Shown here in pieces: positions 3 to 24,784 of a DNA stretch of 64,000 bases. The DNA lies in NCBI GenBank assembly GCA_050952625.1, contig JBMNLH010000001.1:224001-288000 (forward strand). Direction: 5' to 3'. The stretch comes from Bacillota bacterium (GTDB taxonomy: Bacteria > Bacillota > Ch66 > Ch109). Made by a program: the position numbers and the translations under genes. The notes below the pieces were generated by a model. That model made no database searches, was not told the origin of the DNA, and worked only from the letters and a program-made list of their open reading frames with translations. Position 1 is the first letter of the stretch; the number at the start of each line of letters is the position of its first letter.

Positions 3-1064
3 ATCAATGAAGCCGTGACAATCCTGTCAGACGATTTTGACCATGACTTTCGGAGCAAACCATATTCTTTTCCGGGTCGGGCTTTGTTTATTGGTTTTGC
101 GGAAACAGCAACGGCACTTGGTCACGCGGTGTTTAACTCTTACGCCGGAGCAGTTCAGTATTTGCACACAACTCGAGAAAACTTGCTCGGGGCCCACGAT
201 ACTCTTTTTTTTACTGAAGATCACTGCCACGCCCCGGATCAGCGATGCCTGATTCCCGATTCCTCTCTGATGCAAGGGCATGACCTGGTAGTGTTGATTG
301 ACGACGAAATCACCTCAGGCAATACCGGCCTGAATATTATAAAAGCGATCCAACAAAAGTATCCTCAAAAAAAATATGTTATCTTGACGATTCTAGACTG
401 GCGTTCTCCGGCCGCGCAGGCTAAATACAAGTCAGCAGCCGAGGAACTAGGCGTAGAGATTAAGGTCGTTTCTCTGCTCAAAGGAAGGTTTTGGGCCGAG
501 GGCATGGCCCCGGTTATTAAAGAACCATTGATAACCGAGGCGAGTGGCGGGTCGGCACCGAGATACCTTGAGGAAAAAATGGGGTTGGAGATCAAGGCCC
601 CTTTAGTTGGTGGACCGGCCACCAATTATTTGGGTTATACCGGTCGGTTTGGCCTGAATGCCTGGCATAATAGCCGTTTATTGACGGAGGCCCGAGAAAT
701 TGGGCAGTGCTTGGCATCCCAAAGAAAGGGAAAAAGGACGCTCTGCTTGGGGACTGGCGAGTTTATGTATATACCTTTTTTAATTGCCAAATACATGGGT
801 GAAGGGATCCAGGTGCAATCAACGACGCGCAGTCCGGTACACCCCTGCCAAAGGGAGGATTACGCTGTTAAACAAGCCATCCGGTTTCGAGATCCCTTTA
901 TCCCAGAGGTAAAGAATTACGTCTATAATATCCCACCGAATCGTTATGACGAGGTTTTTGTGTTTTGGGAGAAAAAAGTGCTGGCCGAGCAAGTCGCCCC
1001 GTTTGTCCAAGCCATGGAGCAATTAGCGATAAACAACATTGTTTTTGTCAGTTTTTGTCACTAA
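3..1064 (+). CDS. Ter-associated phosphoribosyltransferase with TRSP-like C-terminal domain (5' partial)
   Basis: PRPP-binding motif VVLIDDEITSGNT, FAETATALGH, C-terminal LCLGTGEFMY...STTRSP; frame is open to the window edge; ter context. Confidence 0.85.
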   Translation: MNEAVTILSDDFDHDFRSKPYSFPGRALFIGFAETATALGHAVFNSYAGAVQYLHTTRENLLGAHDTLFFTEDHCHAPDQRCLIPDSSLMQGHDLVVLIDDEITSGNTGLNIIKAIQQKYPQKKYVILTILDWRSPAAQAKYKSAAEELGVEIKVVSLLKGRFWAEGMAPVIKEPLITEASGGSAPRYLEEKMGLEIKAPLVGGPATNYLGYTGRFGLNAWHNSRLLTEAREIGQCLASQRKGKRTLCLGTGEFMYIPFLIAKYMGEGIQVQSTTRSPVHPCQREDYAVKQAIRFRDPFIPEVKNYVYNIPPNRYDEVFVFWEKKVLAEQVAPFVQAMEQLAINNIVFVSFCH

Positions 1065-1076
1065 ATTCTGGGAGGG

Positions 1077-2255
1077 TTGGTTATTAATTCTGCATCTGAA
1101 CTAAGGATCCATGATCGCCTGCGAGATTATCCGCTCGTCCCAGATCCGCCGCATTTAGGCAGTTACTCGGCCCAGGATGTTGTTTTTTTGTTAAAGGATA
1201 TTGGTTCTGATGTTCAAGAACAGGGCAATGAGGAACGAGAGCGGGCGATTCAAAATGGGAAACATTACTCGGAAATGTTGCCAATCGAATATGAACCGAC
1301 GCCGGAATACCTTGATCTTTTCCACCAATCGTTACAAGAATCTGGCTATCGACTGGCCTTGGCCACAGCCATTGTCGCGGAAACTATCCTCAGTAAACGC
1401 GGCCACCACGTAGTGCTGGTTTCACTGGCGAGGGCCGGAACTCCAATTGGCATTCTCATCAAAAGATATCTTCTACAGTTTTATGGCCTCAACGTTCCGC
1501 ATTACAGCATTTCAATTATCCGGGATAAGGGTATTGACAAGCAGGCTTTGATCTATATCCTGCAGCGGTATCCCCGGAGCGCGATTCAGTTTATTGACGG
1601 TTGGACCGGTAAAGGAGCTATTGCCCGGGAACTGGTTAAATCGGTTCTTGATTTTGAGCAAGAGTTTGGTCTGCCGTCAGGGACAATTCCCAGGGATCTG
1701 GCGGTGCTGGCTGACCCGGGACACTGTGCCAACATTTTTGGCACCCGGGATGATTTTTTAATCCCGAGTGCCTGCTTGAATTCAACAGTCTCCGGCTTAA
1801 TGTCCAGAACCTTCTATCGGGAGGACCTGATTGGGCCTCAGGATTTTCACGGAGCGAAGTTTTACCGGGAACTCTTAGCTAAGGACCTATCCAATTATTT
1901 TGTGGATACCGTGGCCGGCTATTATGCGGCGGCGCAGCCGGCAGCCCGAAGTTTGCTGAAAAACAACCCGGATTATGGGGCGGATCAAAATCCCGCTTGG
2001 CTGGGCCAAAAAGACGCCCAAAAGATTCAAATGAAATACGGCCTTAGCAGCATCAACTATGTCAAACCGGGCGTAGGGGAAACTACGCGGGTGCTTTTGC
2101 GGCGTATCCCGTGGAAGGTCCTGGTTAAGGACCCCGCTAACCCTGATCTAAAACACATTCAGATACTGGCGGCGGACCGAGGGGTGCCGGTTGAAGAGTG
2201 TTCGGACCTGAGTTATTCCTGCTATGGTTTGATTAAGACCCTGGGGGATATGTAA
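1077..2255 (+). CDS. StiP-like ter-cluster protein (PRTase-like + PELOTA-type RNA-binding domain)
   Basis: GSYSAQDVVFLLK, HYSEMLPIEY, SLARAGTPIG, FIDGWTGKG, VKPGVGETTRVLLRR motifs typical of this family. Confidence 0.88.
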   Translation: MVINSASELRIHDRLRDYPLVPDPPHLGSYSAQDVVFLLKDIGSDVQEQGNEERERAIQNGKHYSEMLPIEYEPTPEYLDLFHQSLQESGYRLALATAIVAETILSKRGHHVVLVSLARAGTPIGILIKRYLLQFYGLNVPHYSISIIRDKGIDKQALIYILQRYPRSAIQFIDGWTGKGAIARELVKSVLDFEQEFGLPSGTIPRDLAVLADPGHCANIFGTRDDFLIPSACLNSTVSGLMSRTFYREDLIGPQDFHGAKFYRELLAKDLSNYFVDTVAGYYAAAQPAARSLLKNNPDYGADQNPAWLGQKDAQKIQMKYGLSSINYVKPGVGETTRVLLRRIPWKVLVKDPANPDLKHIQILAADRGVPVEECSDLSYSCYGLIKTLGDM

Positions 2256-3067
2256 TGATCTTTGCCAGTGATTTGGATCGGACCTTGATCTATTCAGAGA
2301 AGTTTTTACAAGGCTATGTTGGTCAGGTAAGAGCGGTTGAATCTGGCCAGTATAATTCTTACATGACCCAGCGGGCCACAGGGTTATTAAGACAGATCGC
2401 CCGTTGCCTGCTTTTTATCCCCTGCACTACCCGAACGATTGAACAATACCAGCGGATTCAATTCTTTCAAACGGAAGTAATCCCCCGTTATGCCTTGGCC
2501 AGTAATGGAGCTAATCTCCTGGTCGAGGGTGCTGTTGACCGCGTTTTCCAGAAAAGCATTTTTCACACCCTCGCCAACGAGTGCTTGGCTGGCCCGGAAA
2601 TAATTAAAGAATTTGGCCGGTTGGCCAGTGCGGAATGGACGCAGCCGCTGCGTGAGGCTGATGGAGTTTTTTACTACTGCGTCATTGACCGAACCAAAGC
2701 ACCGCGGCAAGAGTTAGCCCGGTTCAGGGACTGGGCCCGCAAACAAAACTGGGAGCTGTCAATTCAGGGGAGAAAACTCTATTTAGTGCCGGCGGTGATC
2801 AACAAGGGAACAGCCTTAAAGCGCATGGCAGAAATAACCGGGGATGACCGGATTATTAGCGTCGGGGATTCTTTGCTCGACTTACCGCTTCTCTTAGAAG
2901 CTGAATATGCCATTTCCCCGGCCCACGGTGAATTATACGAGGAATTATACGAGCAGTTTGCCAATTCCGGTCGCTGGAAGTTTACCGAAGTATCCGGGAT
3001 AGGAGCCGGCGAAGAAATATTAGAGTTAGCTTTAGACTACGCTGGATTTAGAACAAGCTGGATCTAG
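2255..3067 (+). CDS. HAD-superfamily hydrolase, ter-associated
   Basis: Motif I DLDRTL, TTR, INKG, GDSLLD; TAATG overlap with upstream gene. Confidence 0.88.
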   Translation: MIFASDLDRTLIYSEKFLQGYVGQVRAVESGQYNSYMTQRATGLLRQIARCLLFIPCTTRTIEQYQRIQFFQTEVIPRYALASNGANLLVEGAVDRVFQKSIFHTLANECLAGPEIIKEFGRLASAEWTQPLREADGVFYYCVIDRTKAPRQELARFRDWARKQNWELSIQGRKLYLVPAVINKGTALKRMAEITGDDRIISVGDSLLDLPLLLEAEYAISPAHGELYEELYEQFANSGRWKFTEVSGIGAGEEILELALDYAGFRTSWI

Positions 3068-3282: not shown

Positions 3283-3966
3283 ATGAAACACCAAATTTTA
3301 TACCCGGGTGCATTCCCCTTAGTACAAATCAATCTGGAACACGGCGAGATGATTAAGGCAGAATCTGACGCCATGGTAGCTATGTCGAACACGGTTGATG
3401 TAGAAGGCAAGATGGATGGCGGGCTGCTCGGAGGACTGGCTCGGATGGTGGCGGGAGAAAGCTTTTTCTTTCAGACTCTCACTGCTCGTCGGGGCCCGGG
3501 GGAGGTCTTATTGGCCCCTGCAATCCCGGGTGACGTTATTGATGTGGAACTGGATGGTTCTTACAGTCTGGTCGTTCAAAAAGACGGGTTTTTAGCCGGC
3601 TCGGCTGACCTTCAAGTTTCGACCAAAATGCAGAACCTAGCGCAGGGAATATTCTCCGGGGAAGGTTTTTTTGTGGTTAAGGTAAGTGGAAAAGGACTGG
3701 TGTTCCTCAATACCTACGGGGGCATCCACATCATTAATCTCGAGCCCGGTCAGGAGTATATTGTGGATAATAGTCATCTGGTTGCTTGGCCGGAATACAT
3801 GAATTATACCATTGAAAAAGCCTCCAGCGGGTGGATTTCGACTTTTACTTCGGGTGAGGTAGCTGTGTGTCGGTTCCGGGGACCAGGGCCGGTCATTATC
3901 CAAACGAGAAACCCTGGAGGATTTGGCAATTGGCTACGCCAATTCATTCCCCAAGGGAGACGCTAG
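3283..3966 (+). CDS. AIM24 / TIGR00266 family protein
   Basis: AESDAMVAMS, GESFF, GEGFF, IVDNSHLVAW, SGEVAVCRFRGPG..QTRN; typical ter-cluster associate. Confidence 0.9.
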   Translation: MKHQILYPGAFPLVQINLEHGEMIKAESDAMVAMSNTVDVEGKMDGGLLGGLARMVAGESFFFQTLTARRGPGEVLLAPAIPGDVIDVELDGSYSLVVQKDGFLAGSADLQVSTKMQNLAQGIFSGEGFFVVKVSGKGLVFLNTYGGIHIINLEPGQEYIVDNSHLVAWPEYMNYTIEKASSGWISTFTSGEVAVCRFRGPGPVIIQTRNPGGFGNWLRQFIPQGRR

Positions 3967-4095: not shown

Positions 4096-5391
4096 ATGCT
4101 GGTTACGAGGGGACAGAAAGCGGACCTGACCAAAAAGTATCCCGGTTTGACTGAAGTTATTATCGAAATGGGTTGGGATAATGGTGGAAGGAATATCGAG
4201 ATTGATGCAGCGGCCTTTATGCTCCAGGGTAACGGCAAGTGTCGGGGAGATGAGGATTTTATCTTTTACGGGAACCCAACTGGCCGAAACGGAGGAGTAC
4301 AGATCCAAAATGCCGCGGCTCCCGGTACGGCTAAGATAAAGATCAACTTAAACACCGTTCCTCCTGATGTGGCCAAGATTGCGTTTACCCTTACTATTTA
4401 TGAAGGTCCCCAAAGAGGGCATTCTTTTGGCCAGGTGCCAAGTGCTTACCTGCGAGTTGCTAATCTCGGGAACGAGGAACTGCTTCGCTTTAATATGGGC
4501 CGAGAATTTCAGACCGAAACAGCCATTGTGGTGGCTGAGCTTTATCGACATAGCGGAGAATGGAAGTTAAACTCGATTGCGATGGGTTATCAGGGTGGTC
4601 TGGCGGCATTGTGTGGTGGTTTTGGGATTGTGGTGGATAATAACCAGACAGCTAACCCGGCTCCTCAGAAATCACCAGCCCCGACAATCAAATCCCCAAG
4701 CCGTTCCGAACCCCAGGCCTCGCCTCAGGCCTTGCCTCAGGCTTCACCCCAGGCCTCACCTCAGCCCAAGCTTAACCTGAGCAAAATTGAGTTAAAGAAA
4801 AAGGGCGATAAGATCAACCTGGAGAAAAAGGCCAATAACAAATTGGGCGAGATTTTGATCAATCTGAATTGGAACCAAAAGGCCCAACCTACCGGCTTTT
4901 TTGGGTCCCTGCTGGGCGGCAACAAAGGGATTGATCTTGATCTCGGCTGCCTGATTGAGATGCGGAATGGGGATAAAGGAGTTATCCAAGCCCTCGGCAA
5001 ATCTTTTGGTTCTTATCATACTTATCCCTATATTGCACTGGATGGTGATGATCGAACCGGGGCGGTGGCGTCCGGGGAAAATATCCGGATTAACGGCGAC
5101 CATATCCCGGAGTTTAAGCGAATACTTGTGTTTACCTTTATTTATGAAGGGGCGACCAACTGGGCTGAAGCCGATGGGGTGGTCACTATCAAACAGCCGG
5201 GCGGCCCGGATATTGTGGTGAAACTGGACGAGCATGATAATCGCAAAAACATGTGCGCCATTGCCTTAATCGAAAACATGAATAATGAGACCTTTAGCAT
5301 AGAACGCCTGGTTCGTTATTTCCCCGGGCACAGACAGATGGATGAAGCCTTTAGGTGGGGCCTGCGCTGGAAAGCGGGTCGTAAAGATTAG
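4096..5391 (+). CDS. TerD-TerA family two-domain stress protein
   Basis: N-terminal TerD (DAAAFML..DFIFYGN..ELYRHSGEWK), PQAS-repeat linker, C-terminal TerA-like (DLDLGCL, LDGDDRTG, W.AGRKD). Confidence 0.88.
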   Translation: MLVTRGQKADLTKKYPGLTEVIIEMGWDNGGRNIEIDAAAFMLQGNGKCRGDEDFIFYGNPTGRNGGVQIQNAAAPGTAKIKINLNTVPPDVAKIAFTLTIYEGPQRGHSFGQVPSAYLRVANLGNEELLRFNMGREFQTETAIVVAELYRHSGEWKLNSIAMGYQGGLAALCGGFGIVVDNNQTANPAPQKSPAPTIKSPSRSEPQASPQALPQASPQASPQPKLNLSKIELKKKGDKINLEKKANNKLGEILINLNWNQKAQPTGFFGSLLGGNKGIDLDLGCLIEMRNGDKGVIQALGKSFGSYHTYPYIALDGDDRTGAVASGENIRINGDHIPEFKRILVFTFIYEGATNWAEADGVVTIKQPGGPDIVVKLDEHDNRKNMCAIALIENMNNETFSIERLVRYFPGHRQMDEAFRWGLRWKAGRKD

Positions 5392-5435: not shown

Positions 5436-5533
5436 GCCAAACGTTTAATGTTAGAAGCAGCACATCAAACGTGGGATATTGAAGGTTAACGATTCGAATA
5501 AAGAACGGTCATTTTATGGTAAAGGAGATTGAT

Positions 5534-6550
5534 ATGGGTTTTCGGTTTTTCAAACGGATTAAGCTAATGCCGGGAGTGACGATGAACCTCAGCAAATCAG
5601 CCCCCTCTTTTTCCTTTGGCCCCCGGGGGATGAAGTATACCGTTGGGGCCTCGGGAACCCGCACCACTCTGGGGATACCCGGCACTGGCCTGTATTATAC
5701 CAAGCTCAACAGTCGGAAAAAGAAAAACCAAGATCAAGCACCACCTCCCCCCCAATCGCTCGCTGAAGCAGGCTTCTTTCGTCAGCTTTTTAGTTCACCG
5801 GAAGAAAAAAGCTTGCTTCAAGGAATGAGAAAATTTTTGGAAGGGAATCAAGCCGAAGCCTACCAGGTTTTGCAGCAGAATGCCAATTCAGTCGACAGTC
5901 AGTTTATGTGTGGCTTTATCGCCCTAGGTCAAAAGAAATATGAGCAGGCGGAAAGGCATTTTCGGTTTTGCCAGCAACGACTTGGTGAATTAGGCCAAAC
6001 CATCAAGAAGCTGGGCGGGGATTTTGAGATGCTTCTGGAAGTAACCGAATTTATTGAGGCACCGGTGTTGGCGGACCAAAGAGGCCTGACCCTGGCCATG
6101 GTGGAAGCCTACCAGCACCAAGACAAATATCAGCTGGCTCTGCAGACCTTAACCGAGATCTGGAACAGCAACCCGAGCGATAAGGTGATTTTGCTGTCAT
6201 TGACTGACCTGGTGGCCAATTCGCTGTCGTGTACCAACGAGGAATTAAAAGAGATTGCCGAACTTACCAGTGATGTAGAAAACCAGGAACCGATTGATGC
6301 TAATATTCTTTATTTGCGGGCCTATGTTTTATATCGGCTGGGATTAAAAGATGCGGCGATCAAACTAATGGGGGCGGTTGCGCGCAAGAAAAAGGACCGG
6401 CCCCGTGAACTGCTGCTCTGCGCCAAGTACATGCGGGGGCAGATGTATGAGGAGATAGGCGAAACCAAAAAGGCCAACAAAGATTATCAGGAGGTTTATG
6501 CTGAGGACCCGCAGTTTGAAGATGTCGCGGCAAAACTCGGTTTAAGCTGA
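5534..6550 (+). CDS. DUF4236 domain + TPR-repeat protein
   Basis: MGFRFFKRIKLMPGVTMNLSKS...GIPGTGLYY (DUF4236 pattern) then TPR-like helices; RBS AAAGGAG favours start 5534 over 5516. Confidence 0.82.
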   Translation: MGFRFFKRIKLMPGVTMNLSKSAPSFSFGPRGMKYTVGASGTRTTLGIPGTGLYYTKLNSRKKKNQDQAPPPPQSLAEAGFFRQLFSSPEEKSLLQGMRKFLEGNQAEAYQVLQQNANSVDSQFMCGFIALGQKKYEQAERHFRFCQQRLGELGQTIKKLGGDFEMLLEVTEFIEAPVLADQRGLTLAMVEAYQHQDKYQLALQTLTEIWNSNPSDKVILLSLTDLVANSLSCTNEELKEIAELTSDVENQEPIDANILYLRAYVLYRLGLKDAAIKLMGAVARKKKDRPRELLLCAKYMRGQMYEEIGETKKANKDYQEVYAEDPQFEDVAAKLGLS

Positions 6551-6696: not shown

Positions 6697-7356
6697 ATGT
6701 TTGATGAAATGGAAGGCGCAACTAGAAGACTGCCTGTGTATCTGCTATTAGATCGTTCTGGTTCGATGTTTGGGGAACCGATTGAGGCTGTTAAGCAAGG
6801 CATTAAGTATCTGGTTTCCTCCTTGAAAAAGGAACCCCAAGCGATTGAAACAGCTTACTTGTCGGTAATCTCCTTTGGCAGTGATGCCCGGCAGGACGTC
6901 CCTTTAACGGAACTGTCTTTATTTAAGGAGCCTAACCTGGAGGCTAATGGGACTACCTCGCTGGGTGAAGCCTTGAAAATTCTAAACCGCTGCTTAGAGA
7001 CTGAAGTAAAGAAGTCTTCCCCCACGCAAAAAGGCGATTACAAACCGCTGGTGTTCGTGATGACTGATGGGGAACCCACGGATGCCTGGGAAGGCCCGGC
7101 TCAAGAGATTAAGAAAAAGGCGGGTAAGTTAGCGAATATTGTGGCAGTAGGCTGCGGTCCGCACGTAAACACAGCGACCTTGAAGCAAATTACCGAGATC
7201 GTCCTGATGATGTCCTCTTATCAGCCAGATGATTTTAATCAGTTCTTCCGCTGGGTATCCCAATCGGTTAAACAGGCTAGTATCAAATTCACCAAGGACA
7301 GTGATCAGCCAACTAACCTGCCGGCACCACCGCCGACCATTCAAATAATACCTTAG
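6697..7356 (+). CDS. terY: TerY vWA-domain protein
   Basis: RRLPVYLLLDRSGSM (MIDAS), DYKPLVFVMTDGEPTD, FFRWVSQS, LPAPPP terminus. Confidence 0.9.
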   Translation: MFDEMEGATRRLPVYLLLDRSGSMFGEPIEAVKQGIKYLVSSLKKEPQAIETAYLSVISFGSDARQDVPLTELSLFKEPNLEANGTTSLGEALKILNRCLETEVKKSSPTQKGDYKPLVFVMTDGEPTDAWEGPAQEIKKKAGKLANIVAVGCGPHVNTATLKQITEIVLMMSSYQPDDFNQFFRWVSQSVKQASIKFTKDSDQPTNLPAPPPTIQIIP

Positions 7357-7418
7357 TTCTTTGGATCAAGGGCCTCTTGCTAAATGAAGGAGGCCTTCCG
7401 CATAAGGGAGGCGGAGAC

Positions 7419-8945
7419 ATGGGGTTACAAGCACAAATTTCAAAGAGCTGCCGAGTTGGTGTTAAAGATGAATTATTATCCCTGGGTTTTTTGATAGTCG
7501 AGACTGAGGAACATCTGCTGGTTAACGCCAATGATGCTGAGCATCAGCAGTTAATTGACCGGCTGAATTCCCGCCAGATAACGCTGGAACAATTTATGAT
7601 CGAGGCTAAGCAAAGGTTTGGTCCGGACAAATCGAACTGCAAACCGGATGGTCGGCCCAAAATCCGGATTAATAATCAGCTAATAGAACAGAGAATAATC
7701 AAAAAAGGACAGGTTCAAGATCTTGAACCAATCTTTATTGGTACGGACCCGACGAGCGGCGGGTTTATGCTCCAAAAATTGGAGACGGCTGAGCTTGGTC
7801 AATTCCTCTCTCATCCCAGTGAACTAACCGGCAAAGCAGAAGGTCCGGATGGTTTTTCTGCACCGAAGGGGACGGAAGCCCGGGCCGAGGGAAAGATCGG
7901 TTTGACAGGGGACCAGGATACTCCTGGTTTAAGGGTGGCCAAAACCAGGCTTGAGGAAAATGCTGAACAAATCCCCGAGCGTCACGAAAGCCCCGAAGGT
8001 CACGAAGGTCACGAAAGCCGCGAAGGTCACGAATTTTCAGAACTTCACGAAGCTAAGCACGAACAGGTTGAGGAAGTAATTGTTCCGCAGTGGAAAAACC
8101 TTCCCCCAACCGACCTGGAGGATTGGGTGGAAGTTAATGTTTCAGCCTACCAGGAACGCCCGGATGGCTGGGCCGTAGCGGCCGCCAGTCGCCGAGGGAA
8201 AATTCACGCCCATGAAGGCAGTCACCGGGACGATGCCTTTGCGGTGGGATTTCAAGAAGGCTGGAGCATTATCGTTGCAGCCGATGGGGCTGGTTCCTAC
8301 AAGTTATCCCGCGTCGGGGCTAAACTTAGCTGCCAGGTCGTGGTGGATAACCTGAAAATATTGTTGCGAGACTTTAAATTGAAAGAGATAGAAGGGGCGG
8401 CCCTTCCAGAAGAAGCCGACCTGATTAAAATAAAACTGTTCCTTACCGATAGTATTCAAAAGGCAATTAAAGCGGTTAAGGCTGAAGCCGCTAAAAGGAA
8501 GGTTGAGTTTGAGTTTTTCTCCACCACGGTTCTGACTGCGCTAACCCACAAGTGGCTGGATAAATGTCTCGTCGCTAGCATTCAAGTCGGTGATGGAGCT
8601 ATCGTGGTCTGGCATGGCGGCGATAAGGTGGCCATTTTAGGCCAAGCTGATAGTGGTGATTATGCTGGGGAAACAAAGTTTATTACCTCTAAAGGTATTG
8701 AGGATGAACTGGAGCACAAAGTTTTTTTTACCATCAAGTCCGATGTTGATGCGGTGGCGGTGATGACAGATGGGGTGGCTGACGATTTTTTCCCGGCGGA
8801 AACAGTAATGCCCAAAATGCTGGCGCATGTCTATAATGAACTGATCGGATCGGAAAAACCCGATGAGGAGCTGTTGAACTGGTTGTCCTACGAACGCAGA
8901 GGTTCTTTTGATGACCGTACGCTGGTGGTTCTTCATAGGAGGTAG
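7419..8945 (+). CDS. PP2C-family phosphatase of the TerY-P triad with long N-terminal extension
   Basis: SRRGKIHAHEGSHRDD, AADGAGS, QVGDG, MTDGVADD, DDRT; RBS GGAGG before ATG 7419. Confidence 0.87.
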   Translation: MGLQAQISKSCRVGVKDELLSLGFLIVETEEHLLVNANDAEHQQLIDRLNSRQITLEQFMIEAKQRFGPDKSNCKPDGRPKIRINNQLIEQRIIKKGQVQDLEPIFIGTDPTSGGFMLQKLETAELGQFLSHPSELTGKAEGPDGFSAPKGTEARAEGKIGLTGDQDTPGLRVAKTRLEENAEQIPERHESPEGHEGHESREGHEFSELHEAKHEQVEEVIVPQWKNLPPTDLEDWVEVNVSAYQERPDGWAVAAASRRGKIHAHEGSHRDDAFAVGFQEGWSIIVAADGAGSYKLSRVGAKLSCQVVVDNLKILLRDFKLKEIEGAALPEEADLIKIKLFLTDSIQKAIKAVKAEAAKRKVEFEFFSTTVLTALTHKWLDKCLVASIQVGDGAIVVWHGGDKVAILGQADSGDYAGETKFITSKGIEDELEHKVFFTIKSDVDAVAVMTDGVADDFFPAETVMPKMLAHVYNELIGSEKPDEELLNWLSYERRGSFDDRTLVVLHRR

Positions 8946-8950
8946 TGGGG

Positions 8951-12084: not shown

Positions 12085-12134
12085 AATCATAAATCGGCGT
12101 CTAACCGTTATTATTCAAGATCTTGGAGATCCTT

Positions 12135-15028: not shown

Positions 15029-15114
15029 AGGAGCGAGTAATACTGGTTGTATTCACAGCCATGTCAAATAATGTTAAGTAACGACCCTTAGGTGGGCACG
15101 CAGGAGTGGTGGAA

Positions 15115-15849: not shown

Positions 15850-18800
15850 ATGCCACAGATCTGGCGGATTCGCCTGGCTAATATCGAGTATGACGGCGGA
15901 AAAAAGGTTTATACTGATGAACTGTTTCGGCTGCGGGGCAAGAATGGCCTGATTAATCTGGCTAACGGCGGGGGCAAGACCCTGTTGGTGCAGTTGCTGC
16001 TGCAAGCGGTTTTGCCCAATGAAAGCTTTAATAAACGGCGCGTAGTAGACCTGCTGGCCAACAAAAGGTATACCGGGCATATTGCCGTAGAATGGCGGCT
16101 GGACAGCCCGGAAACGGAATTTTTAACTACTGGCTTTTGTTTTACCCGGGGAGCTGAGGAAGACGGCCGGCTGCGCTATTTCATGTATACAATCCAGTAC
16201 ACGCAGCCTAATGAATTTGATGTTAAAAATCTGCCCTTGGTCAAAAAGCAGGTACCCGTCGCCTATGCGGAACTGTTACACCTATTGCGGCAGAATACCG
16301 GTTCTTCGGAAGCGCGGATTAGTGTCTTTGATCAGGACGATAAGTATCGCGCCTACTGGCAGGAACTGCGGACGTTTAATATCTTCGGCAAGGAATGGAA
16401 AAATATCAAGACCATTAATAACCGGGAAGGCGGCGTGGCCGAATTTTTCAGCGGAGCTTCAACCACCAAGCAGTTGCTGGAGCACCTGATCATTCCCGCG
16501 GTCGAAGGAGCGATCTTTGACTCCGAAAAGGAAGCCCAGGAATTGACCCAGTCTTTCTGGCAGTATTATCAAAGCCTGATGCGCATCCCGGAGTTGCAAA
16601 AAAATTTGGAGAGTTTTCAGGTGCTGCGCCAGGGTGGGGAAGCAGTGCTGCAGGAGGTCCGCACCTATGCCCGCAGCAGTGACCAACTAGTGCAGGTCAA
16701 ACAGCAGTTAGGCCAGCTTTTTGGGCAGGTGTTAACTGAGCTGGAATTAACCCTAACCGAACGGCAGCAGGTCGAGGAACAATTGGGAACTCTTAGCCAG
16801 CGGCAGGGCCAGTTGGAGTACCAAGCTGAAAGTCTGGAGCACGCTCGTCTGTTTCGGCAGTTAACCGAAGGCCGAAGTAAAATGGCTGAGCTGGAAAATA
16901 GCCTGAAAGCAAGCCGCAAGCAGGAACAGGCAGCGGATTATCGTTGGCGTCTGGCCAAAGGACAGAACCGATTTTTGGATATTCAGGAGTTGATCGGGGA
17001 GATAAAAGGCTGGGAGCAGGCTCGGGAAATCCAGAGCCAGGGCCACGAGGAGCAGCTTGCTCAATTGGATAGCTACCGGGCTACCGTGCGGCAACGACTG
17101 ACTGAACTTCAACAGGCCCGGCAGCAACAGTATGTCGAACTGACTACCCGACAACAGCAGCACCAAGCGGAGCAAACCAGCTTAAAACAGACCAGGACCG
17201 CATTATTGGCGGAAAAGGACCAGCTGAGCCGCCGGATTGGTGCCCTGCACACCCAGAAGGAACACTACAGTAAACGGTATGATGAAATGTGGCAAACCTA
17301 CCAGAACCTGCTCTGGTTGGAGGACCCGGCCGCCGCCCTGACAGAACTCACGGCAGAATTGGCGCGAACTCAAGATCAGTGGCAGCAGGCCCGGCAAGAA
17401 AAGGAAGAACTGCTGGCAGCCGAACAGGATCTGACCAATCAGCTGCGGCACCAGGATGCTCTGATTATGCGCCAGCAAGCGGAAGTAACTGCCGCGGAAC
17501 AAGCCGCCCAAGACTATCAGGAAACCTTGGTCCAGGTGCAGGAGATGCTCCAGCGGCACTCGATTACCGCTAAGGAGCCCTTTGCTGAGCGGAGCCGTCT
17601 GGAAAGTCAGCTGCTCAGCCTTTCCCTAACGCTTCAGGCCCAGCAGACGCGGGAGGGGGCGGAGATCAGCCGTCTGGAGGAACAACTTCATTTATTGACC
17701 CAGTACGATTTTTATGTTCCCAATTATGAGTTGCTGGCCCTGCAAAAAACCCTGCAGGAAATCGGCGTTATCGCTAAACCGGGCAGTCAGTGGCTGCAGG
17801 ATTTACAGATTGAAGAGGCGCAGCGAGCCGCTTACCTGCGGCATAACCCGCTCTTGCCCTATGCCCTGGTTCTGACCGAGGCGGATTTTAAACAGCTGCA
17901 GAATCGGCGGGGGATGTGGCGGGAACTGGTGTTAAACTGTCCGGTACCGCTGGTGGTCCGCAGTCCGGAATTAACGCCGGTCGAGACTGAAACTGCTGGG
18001 GATTGGCTGCCGCTAGATGAAAGAAACACCTATGTTGTCTGGCACAAGGGTTATCGTTACGCCGTTTCTCCGGCTCTGCTGGCTCTGGAACAGCCGGGCC
18101 TTGAGGAACAACTGGAGCGGAAAAACCAGATCCTGGCTAATCTCCGTCTCAGCCAGGAGGCTGTGGTACGGACCGGGGATAGGCTGCAGCAGTTTTATTG
18201 CACTTATACCGTTGATTCAGCCAACCACATCCAGGAGCAGCTGACCCATACCCGGCAGGTTCTGGCCGAATCCCTGAGCACCCGCGAAACCATGGAAACT
18301 AGGCAGCAGCAGTTGCAGGAACGCCGGCCTCAATTGGAAGCGGAATTGGAAAAACTCCGGGAGCGGCTCAACCAGATTGAGGTCAGTCAACAGCACTTTC
18401 AACAGTGGCAGCTTGACCGGGAACAGCAACTGCAAATCTTGACCGAACTCGAACAACTACGCCAATTAGAGAAACAGCAACAGACGGCCGAACAGGAGTT
18501 GGAGGAAAAACTGAACCGGCTGGAACAGCAGATCCTCACGACTCAAGGCAGTATTAGTCAACTAGAAGGAACCCTGACCCAGCTCCAGGAAAAACTAGTT
18601 AATACCCCTCACCCGAATCAGCCGGCTGCTCTGGTGTTGGATGTGCCTTATGAGCAGGCGGACAGCGTCTTAAAGGAACTGGAAAAGCAGGTCAATCAGG
18701 CAGCTTCGCAGATTACAGCCTATGATGACTTGATTAGCCGCAATCGACAGCAGATTGCCAAGTTGGAACGCGAGATTCAGAAGGAGCTAAAATTGACGCT

Positions 18801-20244
18801 GGAGGAAGTCGCGGAGGCCAAGCAGCGAACCACTGAGTTTGACCTGGATCGGTTAGAAAAAGAGGTTGGTGAGTTGACCCGGCGGGTTGAGCAAGAGCGG
18901 GAAGCGGTCAGACTCCAGAACGATAAGGTCCTGAAGATGGAAGGTCAGGCTGAGGAGAGGACGACGACAATCTGGAAGAAGTATGGTCAGCTGCCTTACG
19001 CCGAATTTGGCGATCTTGACCGGGACGCAGCGCGGATTAAGGCGGACCAGCAGGAAACAGAACGACAGCTCAAGGAAACCCAACTTAGGCGTCGGCAAGT
19101 GGAGGAAAGCGAAAACCTGTTAGATAAGATGCGGGAAAAATTGCAGGATAACCTGAGTCGGTTTAAAGTGGCGGAGGCCGGCGCACCGATGGCCGCGGAG
19201 GAATGGGCTCAGGTCAAACCGCGGTTGCGCTTGGTGGTGGAAGAACAACTGGGCCGTCTGGAAGCCTTGCATGATCGGATTCAGGCCCAGCGCGAGCAGG
19301 TAAGTCGAGCCTACCGGCAATACACTCAAGTGCTAAAAGAACAGAATAATCAGGTGTTGAATAAGTTCTTGAATCACCTATTGGCGGATGAAAGTCGGCA
19401 GTTCGATCTGCCGGCCATTGAGACTTCCTTTGCAAAATGTTTTGAGACCCTGGACAACTACGAGCAAAAGGTGCGCTACGATCTTCAGGAATGTGAACGG
19501 CACAAACAACTGCTGGTGGAAAGGTGCGTTAAACAGGCGGAACGGATTGCCGCGGAAATAAAAACGATTGACCGTTACGTCAAGGTAGATTACGCCGGGC
19601 AGACGGTCAGTGCCGTACAGATCAAGCTGAAAGACTGGGAGCCGGCGAACGCCCCGGTATTGATGGATAGTCACCTGGAGGCTTGCATCCTGAAACTGAA
19701 AGAGATGAGCCAGGAACCGGTCGAGAAGTTGGAACGGTACATCCGCAATCAACTATCCTCCCGGCAGCTGTTGGATGTATTAGCTAACCTAAACCAGGGT
19801 GTGGTTAAGGTGCTCAAGCCGGACGAACACCCGGTCTCGCCCCGGTATGACCAGTGGGACAACGTGGAGAAGTGGTCCGGGGGTGAACGATTTGCGGGTT
19901 ATATGGCCATGTTCATGGCCATCTTGAGTTATACCCGCAGCAAGCTGAGTAGTCTGCGCAACCCCCATAAGGTCCTGGTGGCCGACAACCCGTTTGGGGC
20001 CGCCTCGTCTGCGCACGTGCTTAATCTGGTTTTTCAGATTGCCGCTAATAATAATATCCAGATGCTCTGCCTGACGGCCCTGACTGAGGAAACAATCTTC
20101 AGTTACTTCCCGGTTGTTTACAGCCTGAAGCTGCGTCAGTTCATGGGCAAAGACTATATCCAGTCCCAAATGGAAAAAGGCTTTTACCAGATTGATCCTT
20201 TGGAAGAAGAACTAATCCGACGCCGCCAAATGACCCTCTTCTAG
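15850..20244 (+). CDS. jetC: Wadjet SMC-like ATPase JetC
   Basis: Walker A NLANGGGKT, ~1000 aa coiled coil, signature WSGGE, Walker B LVADNPFG. Confidence 0.9.
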   Translation: MPQIWRIRLANIEYDGGKKVYTDELFRLRGKNGLINLANGGGKTLLVQLLLQAVLPNESFNKRRVVDLLANKRYTGHIAVEWRLDSPETEFLTTGFCFTRGAEEDGRLRYFMYTIQYTQPNEFDVKNLPLVKKQVPVAYAELLHLLRQNTGSSEARISVFDQDDKYRAYWQELRTFNIFGKEWKNIKTINNREGGVAEFFSGASTTKQLLEHLIIPAVEGAIFDSEKEAQELTQSFWQYYQSLMRIPELQKNLESFQVLRQGGEAVLQEVRTYARSSDQLVQVKQQLGQLFGQVLTELELTLTERQQVEEQLGTLSQRQGQLEYQAESLEHARLFRQLTEGRSKMAELENSLKASRKQEQAADYRWRLAKGQNRFLDIQELIGEIKGWEQAREIQSQGHEEQLAQLDSYRATVRQRLTELQQARQQQYVELTTRQQQHQAEQTSLKQTRTALLAEKDQLSRRIGALHTQKEHYSKRYDEMWQTYQNLLWLEDPAAALTELTAELARTQDQWQQARQEKEELLAAEQDLTNQLRHQDALIMRQQAEVTAAEQAAQDYQETLVQVQEMLQRHSITAKEPFAERSRLESQLLSLSLTLQAQQTREGAEISRLEEQLHLLTQYDFYVPNYELLALQKTLQEIGVIAKPGSQWLQDLQIEEAQRAAYLRHNPLLPYALVLTEADFKQLQNRRGMWRELVLNCPVPLVVRSPELTPVETETAGDWLPLDERNTYVVWHKGYRYAVSPALLALEQPGLEEQLERKNQILANLRLSQEAVVRTGDRLQQFYCTYTVDSANHIQEQLTHTRQVLAESLSTRETMETRQQQLQERRPQLEAELEKLRERLNQIEVSQQHFQQWQLDREQQLQILTELEQLRQLEKQQQTAEQELEEKLNRLEQQILTTQGSISQLEGTLTQLQEKLVNTPHPNQPAALVLDVPYEQADSVLKELEKQVNQAASQITAYDDLISRNRQQIAKLEREIQKELKLTLEEVAEAKQRTTEFDLDRLEKEVGELTRRVEQEREAVRLQNDKVLKMEGQAEERTTTIWKKYGQLPYAEFGDLDRDAARIKADQQETERQLKETQLRRRQVEESENLLDKMREKLQDNLSRFKVAEAGAPMAAEEWAQVKPRLRLVVEEQLGRLEALHDRIQAQREQVSRAYRQYTQVLKEQNNQVLNKFLNHLLADESRQFDLPAIETSFAKCFETLDNYEQKVRYDLQECERHKQLLVERCVKQAERIAAEIKTIDRYVKVDYAGQTVSAVQIKLKDWEPANAPVLMDSHLEACILKLKEMSQEPVEKLERYIRNQLSSRQLLDVLANLNQGVVKVLKPDEHPVSPRYDQWDNVEKWSGGERFAGYMAMFMAILSYTRSKLSSLRNPHKVLVADNPFGAASSAHVLNLVFQIAANNNIQMLCLTALTEETIFSYFPVVYSLKLRQFMGKDYIQSQMEKGFYQIDPLEEELIRRRQMTLF

Positions 20245-20275: not shown

Positions 20276-20539
20276 ATTATCTTATTCGGCTCACGAGCGG
20301 AGGGAGATTTTGGCAAAGATAGTGATTATGACCTCTGCATTATTAAAAATGAAGTTAAACATCGGCGCAGGATGGCTCAAAGTCTTTATAAATCACTGTA
20401 TGGAATCGGTGTACCGGTTGACATAATTGTTGAAACTCCAGAAAGATTTGAAGAATTAAGAGAGAATCCTTTTTTAATCTACCGGGATATCGCCAGGAAC
20501 GGGAGGGTGGTTTATGAAAAACCAGACTCTCGTACATGA
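20276..20539 (+). pseudogene. 5'-truncated MNT (minimal nucleotidyltransferase) antitoxin
   Basis: Own translation: IILFGSRAEGDFGKDSDYDLCII...VPVDIIVETPERF...IARNGRVVYEK; in-frame TAA directly upstream, no start codon. Confidence 0.8.
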
Positions 20540-20632: not shown

Positions 20633-23600
20633 GTGAACTTTGTCGCTGACTTGCATATCCATTCCCACTATTCCCGGGCAACCAGCCGGGACTGTAACCC
20701 GGAGAATCTGCAGCAATGGGCAATTTATAAAGGCATTACTCTTCTGGGCACCGGTGATTTTACCCATCCGGCGTGGCGGGAGGAACTAAGGTCCAAACTA
20801 GAGCCGGCAGAGGAAGGGTTTTACCGTCTGCGCCAGGAGTTTTGCCAGCCGGGTCTGGTGGAACCGCCCGGTAGCCCGGCTGTTCGCTTCGTTGTTTCCG
20901 GGGAGATTAGCACGATCTATAAAAAAGGGGGGCGGGTGCGCAAAGTCCATCATCTGTTGGTTTTGCCGAGCCTGGAAGCAGCGGATGAACTCAGTCGCCG
21001 GCTGGAGGGCATCGGTAATATCCGTTCGGATGGACGGCCGATCCTTGGTTTGGACAGCCGCCATCTCTTAGAAATGGCCTTGGAAGTCTGCCCGGACGTC
21101 ATCTTTATCCCCGCTCATATCTGGACCCCGCATTTTTCTGTTTTTGGGGCCAATTCCGGTTTTGATACGTTAGAAGAGTGTTTTGAAGACCTGACGGAGT
21201 ATATATTTGCCGCCGAAACCGGTCTGTCGTCGGATCCGCCGATGAATTGGCGAGTCTCTGCCTTGGATCGGCTGACCCTGGTTTCTAATTCGGATGCCCA
21301 TTCTCCCCGGAACCTGGCGCGGGAGGCAAATCTTTTTGCGACCGACCTTGCTTATTCGGCCATCCGAGCAGCCCTGCGCGAACGCGACCCCGCTCGCTTT
21401 TTAGGCACCCTGGAGTTCTACCCGGAAGAAGGCAAATATCATTATGATGGGCATCGGGCTTGTCAGGTCCGGTGGGAGCCGGCCCAAACCCGGGCCGCAG
21501 AAAGAATCTGTCCTTACTGCGGTCGAAAGGTAACGGTCGGGGTTCTTCATCGGGTCGAGGAACTAGCGGACCGGCCGGTGGGGTATCGGCCAGCCAACGT
21601 TCCGCCCTTTGAGAGCTTGGTGCCTTTGCCCGAGATTATTGCTGCGGCCTTGGGGGTTGGGGCCCAGAGTAAGAAGGTAGAACAGCATTATTTCTCGATG
21701 CTCGCCCAACTGGGGCCGGAGCTGGTGATCCTGCGCGAAACACCCCTGGAACAGGTGGCCGCGGCCGGTGGGGTATTGGTAGCGGAGGCAATCCGGCGGA
21801 TGCGGGCCGGGGAGGTGGAGACCTTGCCTGGTTTTGACGGGGAATACGGGAAGATAATCCTGCTACGGCCAGAAGAAAGGCAGCAGCTTCTGGGACAGGG
21901 TAGTTTGTTTGAGGAGACGCTCCCGAAGGCAGAGGTAAAGGCAAAAACTCGTAAAACAAGGTCTAAGGCGGACAGACATGATAGTGCACAGGTCGGGAGT
22001 TCTAAAATCGATGCTAATCAGACTGAGGCTTTAGGACCAGAGACTGCCGGAGCGGCATCCTCTCGAAACGATGCGGAGACCGCAAAATCCATAAATTCTC
22101 GTTCTGCAGCTGCGGATACCTCTCGGGAGGGGTTGCTAACTAAGGATGATAAGAGTCTTTCAGTACCTTTAATCGGCTTGGCGAACAATGAGGAAGTATC
22201 TGATGTCAGGTTAACCCGTTACGACGGCCGGCCGGTCTTTGGTGAGGCGTGTGAGGAAGCATCTGATGCCAGGTTAACCGCAGTGGGCGAGGCAATGCTG
22301 GATTTAGTGGCTGCGGGAGTTGATCCAGAACTAAGTTCCACGTTCACTCCGGCTAACGGTCCCGAAATCCTGGCCAGTCTGAATCCAGAACAGCGGGAGG
22401 CTGTGACTGCCGAGGAAGGGCCGGTGATCGTTATCGCCGGTCCAGGTACCGGCAAGACCCGTACCTTGGTCCACCGGATTGCTTATTTGATTAAAGAACG
22501 GGAGGTTTCACCCCACCAGATTACCGCCGTAACCTTTACTAATAAAGCCGCCCAAGAGATTCGCCACCGGCTGACAGAAATCCTAGGTGATAGGGCAATA
22601 GTTCGGGCTATAACTATTGGGACGTTTCACAGCATCTGCCTGGATTTGCTCCGTACTCAGAGGAATAACGAGGGTTTAGTTGTGCTTGATGCCATAGATG
22701 CCCAGGATCTACTTCAGGAGGCCTGGCCGGAGGGCGATAAAAAGAGGGTTAAAGGACTACCCAAGATCCACCGGGAGATTTCCTTTCTCAAAAGCGGTGG
22801 GCATACCTTTTCCTCTCCAGCGGTTCCCGTAGAACTGCGTTCCCTTTATCAGGCCTACCAGGAGAGGCTGGCCGAGTACGGTGCCCTCGATTACGACGAT
22901 ATTCTGCTGGAAGCGGTTGATCTATGTGAAACCTGGCGGAAAGCCTCGGATAGTACAGCCACCGAACATGAGGAGTTAACTCGGTTTACCCACCTCCTGG
23001 TCGATGAATTTCAGGATGTTAACCCGGTCCAGTATCGGCTGGTTAAAGCCTGGGCCGGGCAAGGAGCTAATACCTTTGTGATTGGTGATCCGGACCAGGC
23101 CATTTATGGTTTTCGCGGGGCTGACTACCGGTTTTTCGGGCGGCTGAAGGAAGACTATCCGGCAGCGCGGGTTTGCCGGCTCACCTTAAACTACCGCTCC
23201 ACCCCGACCATACTGCGGGCCGCCTCGGGAGTGGTGGCTAATAACCCGGAAAACCAGCTTCTCGCGGACGGAGAGCGAGACTTAATAGCCACGCATAATA
23301 CACGAAAAACAACGGACCATGTTCTTGCTGATGGCGACACTGTGGCCGAGACCCGGGGTAATTATGTAGAGCCATCTAAATTAACCCTTCTTACTGATGG
23401 CGACACTGTGGCCGAGACCGCACCGGTAGACAGAGCATCTACCCGGGAAAGCCTTGATGATAAGGCGGCCGAGGAGTCGCTGCCAGCTTCTAAACCAGCC
23501 CCACAATTGAGACCGGTCCGCCAACACGACGGCAAAATTCAGCACTGGGAAGTGGCCAGTGAGCTGGCCGAGGGGATTGCTATTGTTCAGGAAATTAACC

Positions 23601-24784
23601 GTTTGGTCGGAGGAGCGACTATGCTTCAATCCCACGGTCAGGGCGGCGGTTTGTCTGCGCGGAACCGGAAAGCCGGGGAAGAAGAAGCTCGAGGGTTCTC
23701 TGATATAGCTGTTCTTTTTCGGACCAGTCGCCAAGGAGAGCAATTGGAGGAGTGTTTCCTGAGGGAAGGAATCCCCTACCGGGTAGTTGGTCGCGAAAGC
23801 TTCCTGGCTGAGCGGGAGGTGCGAGAGGTTCTGGCGTTTTGCCGGTGTTTAGTTGACCCAGAAGATGATTTTCACCTGATCCGTTGTCTAGGTTCGACAG
23901 TTTTTGGCCTCGGTCGGTCAGGGATATCCCTGGTCCGCGAAAAAGCCCGGCAGATCGGGGGCTCAGCCTGGCAGGCGATCATCGATTTAACAGAAAGTCA
24001 GTTCTCGTCCCCATCGGCGGTCATTAACAAGCTAGCCGCCTTGCGCGATTTAATGAATAAATACCGATCCCTGATGATGTCTGAACCACCTGGATCGCTG
24101 CTGTCCCGCTGGATTGAGGAGCATCAGCCAAAGATAAAGCGACCGGAATCCCTTTATCGGCTGCAAAGGGTAGCTTCTCGGTTTAACGACTTACCCTCTT
24201 TTCTAGCGCAACTCGTTCTGGGTCAGGAAGTCGATCATGAACGTCCGGGAAGCAATGTTCTAACGGCTGAGGTCGTAACCCTGATGACCTTGCATGCTGC
24301 CAAAGGGTTGGAGTTTCCGGTGGTTTTCATTACCGGGGTAGAAAAAGGGTTGTTGCCGCTTAAAGAGTGGCGAACTCAAGAAAAGCAGGATAAAGTGCGA
24401 AGCGGTAATACAGTCGAGCAGAAGGAAGCGGCACCTTGTAAAGAAGAGCAAAGTAAAGAGGAGCTAGCTCATAATCAGGACCAAGGCCAAGACCAGAACC
24501 AGGGCCAGAAGGGGAGGGCAGAAATCAAGCAAGTTGTGACACTAGCCGAGGAGGCCCTAGCCGAAGAACGTCGGTTGTTCTACGTGGGACTGACCCGGGC
24601 TAAGGATCAACTGATCCTGGTCACGGCCAAGAACCGGAACCGGCCGGGAAAGAAGGCTTCTACTCAACCGTCCCCTTTCCTTCGGGAGATCCCTCCAGAT
24701 TGCCTGGAGCACAAAGACTGGGATACCCAGACCTGGCGAAAAAGTGATGGTAGCGAAAATATTAAGCAGCTTAGCTTGTTTTAA
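20633..24784 (+). CDS. EndoQ/TIGR00375-type PHP nuclease fused to UvrD/PcrA SF1 helicase
   Basis: ADLHIHSHYS, GTGDFTHP, PAHIWTP, SNSDAHS, GKYH..HRAC, CPYC, PGFDGEYG; helicase AGPGTGKT, VDEFQD, GDPDQAIYGFRG, NYRS, TLHAAKGLEF, EERRLFYVGLTRAK. Confidence 0.88.
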   Translation: MNFVADLHIHSHYSRATSRDCNPENLQQWAIYKGITLLGTGDFTHPAWREELRSKLEPAEEGFYRLRQEFCQPGLVEPPGSPAVRFVVSGEISTIYKKGGRVRKVHHLLVLPSLEAADELSRRLEGIGNIRSDGRPILGLDSRHLLEMALEVCPDVIFIPAHIWTPHFSVFGANSGFDTLEECFEDLTEYIFAAETGLSSDPPMNWRVSALDRLTLVSNSDAHSPRNLAREANLFATDLAYSAIRAALRERDPARFLGTLEFYPEEGKYHYDGHRACQVRWEPAQTRAAERICPYCGRKVTVGVLHRVEELADRPVGYRPANVPPFESLVPLPEIIAAALGVGAQSKKVEQHYFSMLAQLGPELVILRETPLEQVAAAGGVLVAEAIRRMRAGEVETLPGFDGEYGKIILLRPEERQQLLGQGSLFEETLPKAEVKAKTRKTRSKADRHDSAQVGSSKIDANQTEALGPETAGAASSRNDAETAKSINSRSAAADTSREGLLTKDDKSLSVPLIGLANNEEVSDVRLTRYDGRPVFGEACEEASDARLTAVGEAMLDLVAAGVDPELSSTFTPANGPEILASLNPEQREAVTAEEGPVIVIAGPGTGKTRTLVHRIAYLIKEREVSPHQITAVTFTNKAAQEIRHRLTEILGDRAIVRAITIGTFHSICLDLLRTQRNNEGLVVLDAIDAQDLLQEAWPEGDKKRVKGLPKIHREISFLKSGGHTFSSPAVPVELRSLYQAYQERLAEYGALDYDDILLEAVDLCETWRKASDSTATEHEELTRFTHLLVDEFQDVNPVQYRLVKAWAGQGANTFVIGDPDQAIYGFRGADYRFFGRLKEDYPAARVCRLTLNYRSTPTILRAASGVVANNPENQLLADGERDLIATHNTRKTTDHVLADGDTVAETRGNYVEPSKLTLLTDGDTVAETAPVDRASTRESLDDKAAEESLPASKPAPQLRPVRQHDGKIQHWEVASELAEGIAIVQEINRLVGGATMLQSHGQGGGLSARNRKAGEEEARGFSDIAVLFRTSRQGEQLEECFLREGIPYRVVGRESFLAEREVREVLAFCRCLVDPEDDFHLIRCLGSTVFGLGRSGISLVREKARQIGGSAWQAIIDLTESQFSSPSAVINKLAALRDLMNKYRSLMMSEPPGSLLSRWIEEHQPKIKRPESLYRLQRVASRFNDLPSFLAQLVLGQEVDHERPGSNVLTAEVVTLMTLHAAKGLEFPVVFITGVEKGLLPLKEWRTQEKQDKVRSGNTVEQKEAAPCKEEQSKEELAHNQDQGQDQNQGQKGRAEIKQVVTLAEEALAEERRLFYVGLTRAKDQLILVTAKNRNRPGKKASTQPSPFLREIPPDCLEHKDWDTQTWRKSDGSENIKQLSLF

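Follow-up and report, generated by a model that had tools for sequence, protein, structure and literature searches.

The DNA analysed here is a window of 64,000 nucleotides from a Bacillota genome (G000:C1:224001-288000), and this report concerns its bases 3-24784, a stretch of 16 consecutive open reading frames (ORFs) on the plus strand. The stretch codes for a Ter stress-response supercluster with a TerY-P phospho-switch, a type III Wadjet system and a fusion of Endonuclease Q (EndoQ) to a UvrD-type helicase. A preliminary description had taken the run for a composite defence island. Our analysis indicates that it is probably a patchwork, in which three independent and already known modules lie side by side, and not one new defence island.

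Profile searches with Pfam, PADLOC and NCBIfam identified the ORFs and agree with the inventory proposed earlier, i.e. ter genes, TerY-P, a beta-helix-TerD protein, a DUF4236-TPR protein, Wadjet and EndoQ-UvrD. The genes form an unbroken plus-strand run, as had been remarked, and overlap or abut at 2255, 8945, 10359-10390, 13195-13220 and 15849/15850. From gene content, folds, intact motifs and distribution we infer the following activities and order of acquisition. The first module is a Ter supercluster with a P-type ATPase gene as its left end, 6.3 kb outside the window, and base 11690 as its right end; its TerD proteins and its predicted pathway for a nucleoside-like metabolite would stand under a switch made of von Willebrand factor A (vWA), PP2C, zinc-ribbon kinase and beta-helix proteins, possibly together with an ion pump. 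The second (12123-20244) is a complete type III Wadjet, in which, by analogy with type I, a JetABC motor would extrude small circular DNA and JetD would cut it. The third (20633-24784) is an apparently resident EndoQ-UvrD gene, in whose product the EndoQ half would cut one strand 5' of a deaminated or abasic site and the helicase half, held by the sliding clamp, would open the duplex from there. The first two modules would have been acquired in this lineage and then colonised by short repeats of the host, the third being already present, and a decayed MNT-type nucleotidyltransferase gene marks the junction between Wadjet and the fusion.

The separation of the modules is apparent from their distribution. 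We compared G000 with 40 related genomes, five of them from the same family and several fragmented, and searched the flanks of the relatives by tblastn with 26 local proteins. StiP, JetA and PP2C have no match in any of the five same-family genomes. Elsewhere among the relatives StiP occurs only in G010 and G028, which hold the Ter core without TerY-P or Wadjet, and G006 has JetDABC without Ter or the fusion. In G000 the Ter/TerY-P and Wadjet genes are single-copy. The tblastn comparison found no other local gene common to the flanks of the fusion in G002, G003, G004, G007, G008, G017 and G024; the only shared gene near the fusion in G004 is an amidase. A scan of one genome per species for EndoQ-UvrD recognised at least 597 relatives among 600 candidate stretches; 80 loci were kept for neighbour analysis, and Jet proteins of G000 or G008 were found within 10 kb in none of these 80 other EndoQ loci. 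Likewise, among 80 metagenome TerY-P loci, collected with a profile of PP2C relatives and then searched with the local proteins by tblastn, none matches the Jet genes or the EndoQ-UvrD fusion. The Ter/TerY-P and Wadjet parts, whose StiP, PP2C and JetA have no match in the five family genomes, are thus supported as accessory in this lineage, as the preliminary description had supposed. The linkage that it assumed between the modules, and its inclusion of the fusion in the cargo, find no counterpart in these neighbourhoods, where the modules are unlinked.

Base composition varies along the block. The G+C content is 47.8% in the ATPase gene, 48.2% in Ter/TerY-P, 51.5% in Wadjet and 54.6% in the fusion, with 43.4% in the left flank, 44.6% in the right flank and 45.5% in the genome. 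The excess of Ter/TerY-P and Wadjet over the flanks is in line with their accessory status. The common orientation of the genes is leading-strand background and no signal of an island; it is uninformative because 85% of nearby genes lie on the plus strand. Among ORFs of at least 100 aa the plus-strand share is 46/49 in the window and 209/247 in the surrounding 300 kb, GC skew is positive across the whole window, and at an 85% background the random chance of 16 co-oriented ORFs is 0.85^16, or about 0.07. Pfam scans of ORFs of at least 80-90 aa over ~51 kb detected no integrase, recombinase or transposase, and the stretch and its borders are free of tRNA genes and att-like repeats, the nearest tRNAs being 45.7 kb away. 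The earlier remark that no integrase or att site is visible holds here as well, and the stretch has neither the recombinase nor the tRNA or att boundaries by which a mobile genomic island is recognised.

If the whole run were one composite island, acquired and working as a unit, Ter/TerY-P would sense infection and signal to Wadjet and EndoQ-UvrD. The contiguity and common orientation of the genes and the G+C raised over the whole block are in line with such a unit, as is the frequent linkage of TerY-P triads to DNA-processing modules described in passages of papers that cite Anantharaman et al. 2012. We nevertheless regard it as very improbable, because the relatives and metagenome loci searched have at most one of its modules each, the co-orientation is that of the background, the fusion is conserved where the other modules are missing, and the scans over ~51 kb found no mobility genes. 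Several observations do weigh against the patchwork. The block from the ATPase to the fusion lies above both flanks in G+C, with the fusion as its richest part, and could be read as a single import. Synteny within the family (G002, G003, G004) is too scrambled to yield insertion boundaries, and the only congener, G001, is 78% complete. In G008 a complete type I Wadjet (JetA1-B1-C1-D1, L020:554-10775) stands divergently to EndoQ-UvrD at a distance of 135 bp. A survey of 401 genomes of the phylum (G000 and 400 others) gave, by our reading of the table, ~15 that hold both Wadjet and EndoQ, adjacent only in G000 and G008; two adjacencies in ~15 genomes compare with ~0.1 expected at random, a rough estimate made post hoc. 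Finally, a peptide that is rare at protein C-termini stands at the end of both JetC3 and the fusion and hints at a common partner.

Such adjacency might mean that Wadjet and EndoQ-UvrD are coupled through the replication sliding clamp as two clients of it, the fusion processing Wadjet-cut DNA or aiding Wadjet at replicating plasmids. Wadjet lies on the 5' side of the fusion in two families, i.e. in G000 (type III, 388 bp) and in G008, and the strict pattern Q[LIM]x[LM]F, sought within the last 17 residues of the 1713 G000 ORFs of at least 200 aa, occurs in only three of them: PolC, JetC3 and the fusion. On the other hand, the 80 other EndoQ loci have no Jet genes within 10 kb, the G008 JetC1 has no clamp-like tail, and the count of two was noticed post hoc. 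Moreover, in four complete or near-complete genomes of one genus (G066, G146, G268, G371) Wadjet and EndoQ lie 160-256 kb apart, and in the others they are on different contigs. Coupling of this kind appears improbable to us. A general linkage of Wadjet with EndoQ was rejected on the same 80 loci and on the adjacency in two of ~15 genomes; in the phylum survey JetC1-model matches (E up to 1e-10) occur in 107 genomes, ~47 of them strong, and JetC3 in 48. It is a realistic possibility, to which we give a little under an even chance, that the region upstream of EndoQ-UvrD is a variable hotspot that gathers accessory DNA with no functional link. The upstream cargo differs in each relative, a toxin-antitoxin (TA) remnant lies at the junction, the modules differ in G+C, and core defence hotspots are described for other bacteria (PMC10250203). 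Conversely, defence genes occupy this position in just two of the eight relatives with readable flanks, and no flanking synteny is established.

Within the patchwork of independent modules, the EndoQ-UvrD gene (20633..24784, plus strand; TIGR00375; PF00580, E 4e-68; PF13361, E 1e-40) reads as a resident, lineage-conserved gene of repair type and not as island cargo, because it is conserved in the family, widespread, and mostly surrounded by housekeeping genes. Its EndoQ part is present in all five same-family genomes, with 75-94% identity over residues 1-440, and in six other families; EndoQ matches to the fusion (E up to 1e-80) occur in 61 of the 401 phylum genomes. The one-genome-per-species scan places relatives in Bacillota, Latescibacterota, Gemmatimonadota and a Treponema. 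EndoQ and UvrD form one ORF of 1018-1236 aa in 70 of the 80 loci, and the same fused layout, annotated as "UvrD-helicase domain-containing protein", is found in Yeguia, Anaerotruncus, Mediterraneibacter and Lawsonibacter. No neighbour is conserved, the largest neighbour cluster comprising 11 of the 80 loci, and in six of the seven relatives examined the neighbours are ordinary metabolic or regulatory genes. With this distribution, the suggestion that EndoQ-UvrD is a new defence component is not upheld. In G007 a DUF763 gene is located directly upstream of the fusion, and a stand-alone EndoQ paralogue with 66% identity lies ~10 kb away (L024:15476-16573, L025:7249-8511).

The 1383-aa protein consists of EndoQ (1-~415), a linker, a UvrD/PcrA-type SF1 helicase (~580-1340) and a C-terminal KQLSLF; low-complexity inserts take it beyond the usual length of 1018-1236 aa. 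The EndoQ part aligns end to end, including the C-terminal helical domain, with Pyrococcus furiosus EndoQ (5zb8, 7k30); phmmer against 5zb8 gives E 1e-53, with residues 5-413 matched to 5-383 of 400. All catalytic residues given by Shiraishi et al. (PMC4357722) are retained, i.e. D6, H8, H10, E91, H106/107, H162, E195 and SDAH220-223. The Zn site H274/C277/C293/C296 is invariant in nine relatives, its first ligand being His where P. furiosus EndoQ has Cys. The fusion differs further from the archaeal enzyme in its SF1 helicase and in its tail, which is of the bacterial clamp-motif type instead of a PCNA PIP box; most relatives of the fusion end likewise. The helicase half has the UvrD-helicase and UvrD_C domains and the GPGTGKT and DEFQD motifs of UvrD/PcrA-type SF1A enzymes, and does not reach the equivalog thresholds set for PcrA, UvrD and Rep; a separate PcrA-like gene is present on contig 2 of G000. 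A helicase step in EndoQ repair is proposed in PMC4357722, and our literature search returned no study of an EndoQ-UvrD fusion.

The Wadjet named in the preliminary description is confirmed as type III, with all four subunits near full length and contiguous on the plus strand. JetD3, the Toprim nuclease subunit (12123..13220), matches PDLC00591 (E 1e-102) over 4-349 of 350 and PF09983; JetA3, the kleisin-like subunit (13195..14739), matches PDLC00558 at full length (E 2e-201); JetB3 (15106..15849; DUF6063) matches PDLC00577 (E 1e-99) and PF19539 (E 3e-62); and JetC3, the SMC-like ATPase (15850..20244), matches PDLC00582 (E 3e-112) over 1-1434 of 1472. In the unaligned JetC sequence GGGKT resembles a Walker A motif and VLVADN a Walker B region, and Asn occupies the place of the usual catalytic Glu of SMC ATPases. 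The JetD-A-B-C order is that of G006, whose JetA is the only close match among the relatives (72% identity). The two loci differ in that jetA and jetB abut in G006, whereas in G000 they are separated by a 366-bp spacer (14740..15105) built of short repeats dispersed in the G000 genome, which contains an internal 22-nt direct repeat and 25-100-nt matches to other sites. JetABCD-III operons of Bacillus thuringiensis/cereus are listed in bioRxiv 10.1101/2025.03.10.642339, and extrusion and cleavage of small circular DNA by type I Wadjet are described in that preprint and in 10.1101/2022.10.04.510915. In G004 a 268-aa frame (G004:C25:9854-10624) matches JetC3 at its C-terminal end alone (E 5e-154), and JetA was not found in that genome; either a decayed Wadjet or a break in the assembly could account for the frame.

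JetC3 ends in RRRQMTLF, with the clamp-binding-like peptide encoded at 20227-20241, and the JetC of G006 ends in ...RQLALFGNEEDEVII. The peptide that binds the bacterial beta-clamp (DnaN) has a terminal consensus of the QL[SD]LF type. A looser pattern, Q..[LM]F, is met in 5 of the 1713 G000 ORFs. Reading by eye, we found the strict motif in 9 of the first 20 JetC3 tails, which becomes 11/22 with G000 and G006, and a script counted it in 6 of 20 more divergent ones. The total for type III is thus 17/42, an enrichment over the 3/1713 of the G000 ORFs, and the remaining tails comprise ~12 near-variants (QLSLL, QVSMF, QITIF) and ~10 without any such peptide. None of 20 type I JetC tails has the strict motif; four of these 20, with long extensions, end in QD[ST]LF. 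The literature searched yielded no description of such a tail for type III Wadjet and no paper linking Wadjet to DnaN binding, the single co-mention being in PMC11329512. Judging from the sequences, we tentatively propose, at somewhat less than even confidence, that type III Wadjet may be a sliding-clamp client through the QLxLF-type tail of JetC3, and we attach to this the smaller claim that the TerY-P genes considered below make up a four-gene unit. Alternatively, the tail could serve to hold a different subunit of Wadjet.

The TerY-P part consists of three enzyme genes, adjacent or overlapping on the plus strand, and a gene that follows them. The TerY-like vWA protein (6697..7356; PF00092, E 6e-17) has the MIDAS motif DRSGS. 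The PP2C phosphatase (7377..8945; PF13672, E 4e-43) carries a lineage-specific N-terminal part of 235 residues that has no Pfam match and is found in none of the 80 TerY-P loci. With PP2C as the query, none of the 400 other phylum genomes gives a match at E up to 1e-15, and the closest relatives of PP2C in a large protein collection, in Desulfotomaculum sp. and Heliorestis, align over the PP2C domain only. A metagenome scan with this single protein as the query found no relatives, and an alignment-based scan succeeded. The third gene (8945..10390; PF00069) codes for a Hanks-type Ser/Thr kinase followed by a Zn ribbon and an all-beta C-terminal domain (model pLDDT 92). Its model resembles kinase folds at Z 18-20, including PknB (1mru, Z 18.3); the motifs HxD..N, DxD and APE are all intact, all 27 sequences compared keep the Zn-ribbon residues C326, C331, C346 and C349, and a search with the all-beta domain (357-470) gave just one unnamed Atlas cluster (0.82).

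As described above, the triad genes themselves are confirmed. The triad belongs, however, to the Ter-associated type, for which the passage in PMC11090510 gives a Zn ribbon fused after the kinase as the defining feature. The version shown to be anti-phage by Gao et al. 2020 has, according to the same part of PMC11090510, an OB fold after the kinase; the two share three enzyme classes in one operon and differ in that the kinase described here continues into a Zn ribbon and then an all-beta domain. PADLOC at E up to 1 had no model matching vWA or PP2C, and its library may hold no TerY-P models.

The gene after the kinase (10359..11690, plus strand) codes for a protein with a NosD-like N-terminus and with beta-helix, immunoglobulin-like (Ig), linker and TerD parts (model pLDDT 87). 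Residues 1-~105 fold into a right-handed beta-helix of short length (pectin methylesterase 1xg2, Z 12.7, rmsd 2.1, 108 aligned; NosD 7o0y, Z 8.6), residues 105-200 a PapD/ASH-like Ig domain (HYDIN 2ys4, Z 9.7) that is followed by a disordered linker, and residues 269-443 a TerD domain (2qz7, Z 16.3; 2kxt, Z 16.0). Among the 80 TerY-P loci, where the order vWA, PP2C, kinase is common, tblastn matches were obtained for vWA in 60, upstream of PP2C, for the kinase domain in 72, for the C-terminal part of the kinase in 54 and for the N-terminal beta-helix module in 34; the P-type ATPase matched in 16, the double TerD in 10, TerD in 6-8, StiP in 3, and the lyase and the phosphoribosyltransferase (PRTase) in 2 each. 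Where a kinase ORF was called and at least 1200 nt followed it (34 loci), a beta-helix homologue is among the next two ORFs in 21. The N-terminal module of the beta-helix protein is thus a conserved fourth gene of this TerY-P type, in line with the earlier suggestion of beta-helix-TerD as a candidate component. Its partner domains differ by locus (TerD, vWA, more beta-helix repeats, SEL1 or TPR), and homologues of the P-type ATPase often come directly after it. The beta-helix/Ig protein is probably an adaptor or output of the phospho-switch. This "triad" may be a unit of four genes with ties to the P-type ATPase and to TerD; if so, the switch would be linked to a metal or to Ca2+. Neither AIM24 nor DUF4236 nor TPR was matched in any of the 80 loci, and neither AIM24 nor the suggested component DUF4236-TPR shows a conserved link to TerY-P.

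The Ter metabolite genes precede the switch on the same strand. The lyase, PRTase, StiP and HAD genes of such clusters are predicted to make a nucleoside-like metabolite, and TerD proteins are of a Ca2+-binding type. The PRTase_2 and TRSP phosphoribosyltransferase gene (3..1064; PF15609, E 4e-50; PF12500, E 4e-44) is cut at its 5' end by the window, starts ~270 bases upstream and is syntenic in G010 and G028. It is followed by the StiP cysteine protease-like gene with PELOTA_1 (1077..2255; PF11202, E 2e-107; PF15608, E 1e-33), which is 56-59% identical in these two genomes with the gene order kept, and by a HAD-IIB-like phosphatase (2255..3067) with weak Pfam and NCBIfam HAD-IIB matches, which is kept after StiP in both at ~39% identity. 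Next come a member of the AIM24/TIGR00266 family (3283..3966; PF01987, E 9e-71), a double-TerD protein (4096..5391; PF02342 in two stretches, E 5e-64) with a full-length, 53% identical homologue beside the TerD triplet of G028, and the DUF4236 and TPR protein (5516..6550; PF14020, E 5e-20, and TPR matches). DUF4236-TPR is absent from the Ter loci of G010 and G028, and a literature search on DUF4236 function found nothing. The two relatives share only the order TerDx3(-TerD2x)-lyase-PRTase-StiP-HAD, at 38-69% identity. The TerD paralogues, C-C lyase, PRTase_2/TRSP, StiP/PELOTA and HAD in conserved order identify the genes as a Ter metabolite-synthesis cluster.

This cluster and TerY-P correspond to the systems of Anantharaman, Iyer and Aravind 2012, as these are summarised in passages of PMC11090510 and PMC4978471. 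The likeness includes the set of TerD paralogues, C-C lyase, PRTase, StiP/PELOTA and HAD, and the order vWA, PP2C and kinase with a Zn ribbon after the kinase. Unlike that description, as far as the citing passages convey it, no TerB, TerC or TelA is found among the ORFs of at least 80-90 aa scanned over ~51 kb, the kinase gene is succeeded by one for a beta-helix/Ig protein, and the locus includes a P-type ATPase.

The Ter part begins ~6.3 kb before base 1 of the window, in agreement with the earlier statement that the window does not include the left edge. The 20 kb upstream (L002) hold, on the plus strand, the P-type cation ATPase that heads the cluster (L002:13745-16348), three TerD genes and a C-C_Bond_Lyase gene that lead straight into the PRTase gene. 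Farther left of the ATPase are minus-strand sporulation genes, an amidase, FeoAB and regulators. On the right, a 369-aa protein with a C-terminal 4Fe-4S dicluster (24799-25908) begins 15 bp downstream of the fusion; relatives do not keep it in this position, and a paralogue of it is found on contig 3.

The TA system described as eroded is represented by a start-less remnant of an MNT-type nucleotidyltransferase (20276..20536, plus strand; PF01909, NTP_transf_2, E 2.4e-10, profile 17-80 of 93). The decayed antitoxin stub is thus verified, without a start and without the first 16 profile positions. The 24-codon ORF after the MNT frame, a putative HEPN toxin stub, has no Pfam match and no HEPN match, and the remains do not amount to a HEPN/MNT pair. 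Repeats of the host are interspersed in the block. The intergenic elements at 6551-6696 (~110 nt, ~95 genome copies) and 3068-3282 (60-80 nt, ~55 copies) look REP/MITE-like, and folding revealed no significant structure in either (z -1.6 and -1.4). As such host-wide repeats lie inside the Ter and Wadjet parts, the acquired DNA would have been resident long enough for colonisation. Upstream of jetD, 85 nt at window bases 11768-11851 are 95% identical to contig 8, 24831-24915, and contain a hairpin-like inverted repeat. An Rfam scan of window bases 1-32000 (E up to 0.1) gave no match, promoter and terminator scans gave counts not above those in shuffled sequence, and the small ORFs at 11884, 14983, 20262, 20372, 20514 and 20540 have no Pfam match.

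The stretch is thus a good specimen of known systems, with the JetC tail, the beta-helix/Ig gene and EndoQ-UvrD as testable by-products, and the case cautions against taking runs of leading-strand genes for islands. The fourth gene with its beta-helix and the linkage to the ATPase and TerD provide a candidate output and a candidate ion input for the long-unsolved TerY-P switch. The joining of EndoQ to UvrD points to the step that bacteria may take after the EndoQ nick. If the clamp proposal is true, clamps that remain on replicating DNA may be the sites where the Wadjet motor is loaded, positioned or licensed, and Wadjet may work together with clamp-tethered repair enzymes. The JetC tail, in type III and in some type I systems, would then offer an initial way into the question of how type III Wadjet, as yet uncharacterised, finds or discriminates its DNA targets.

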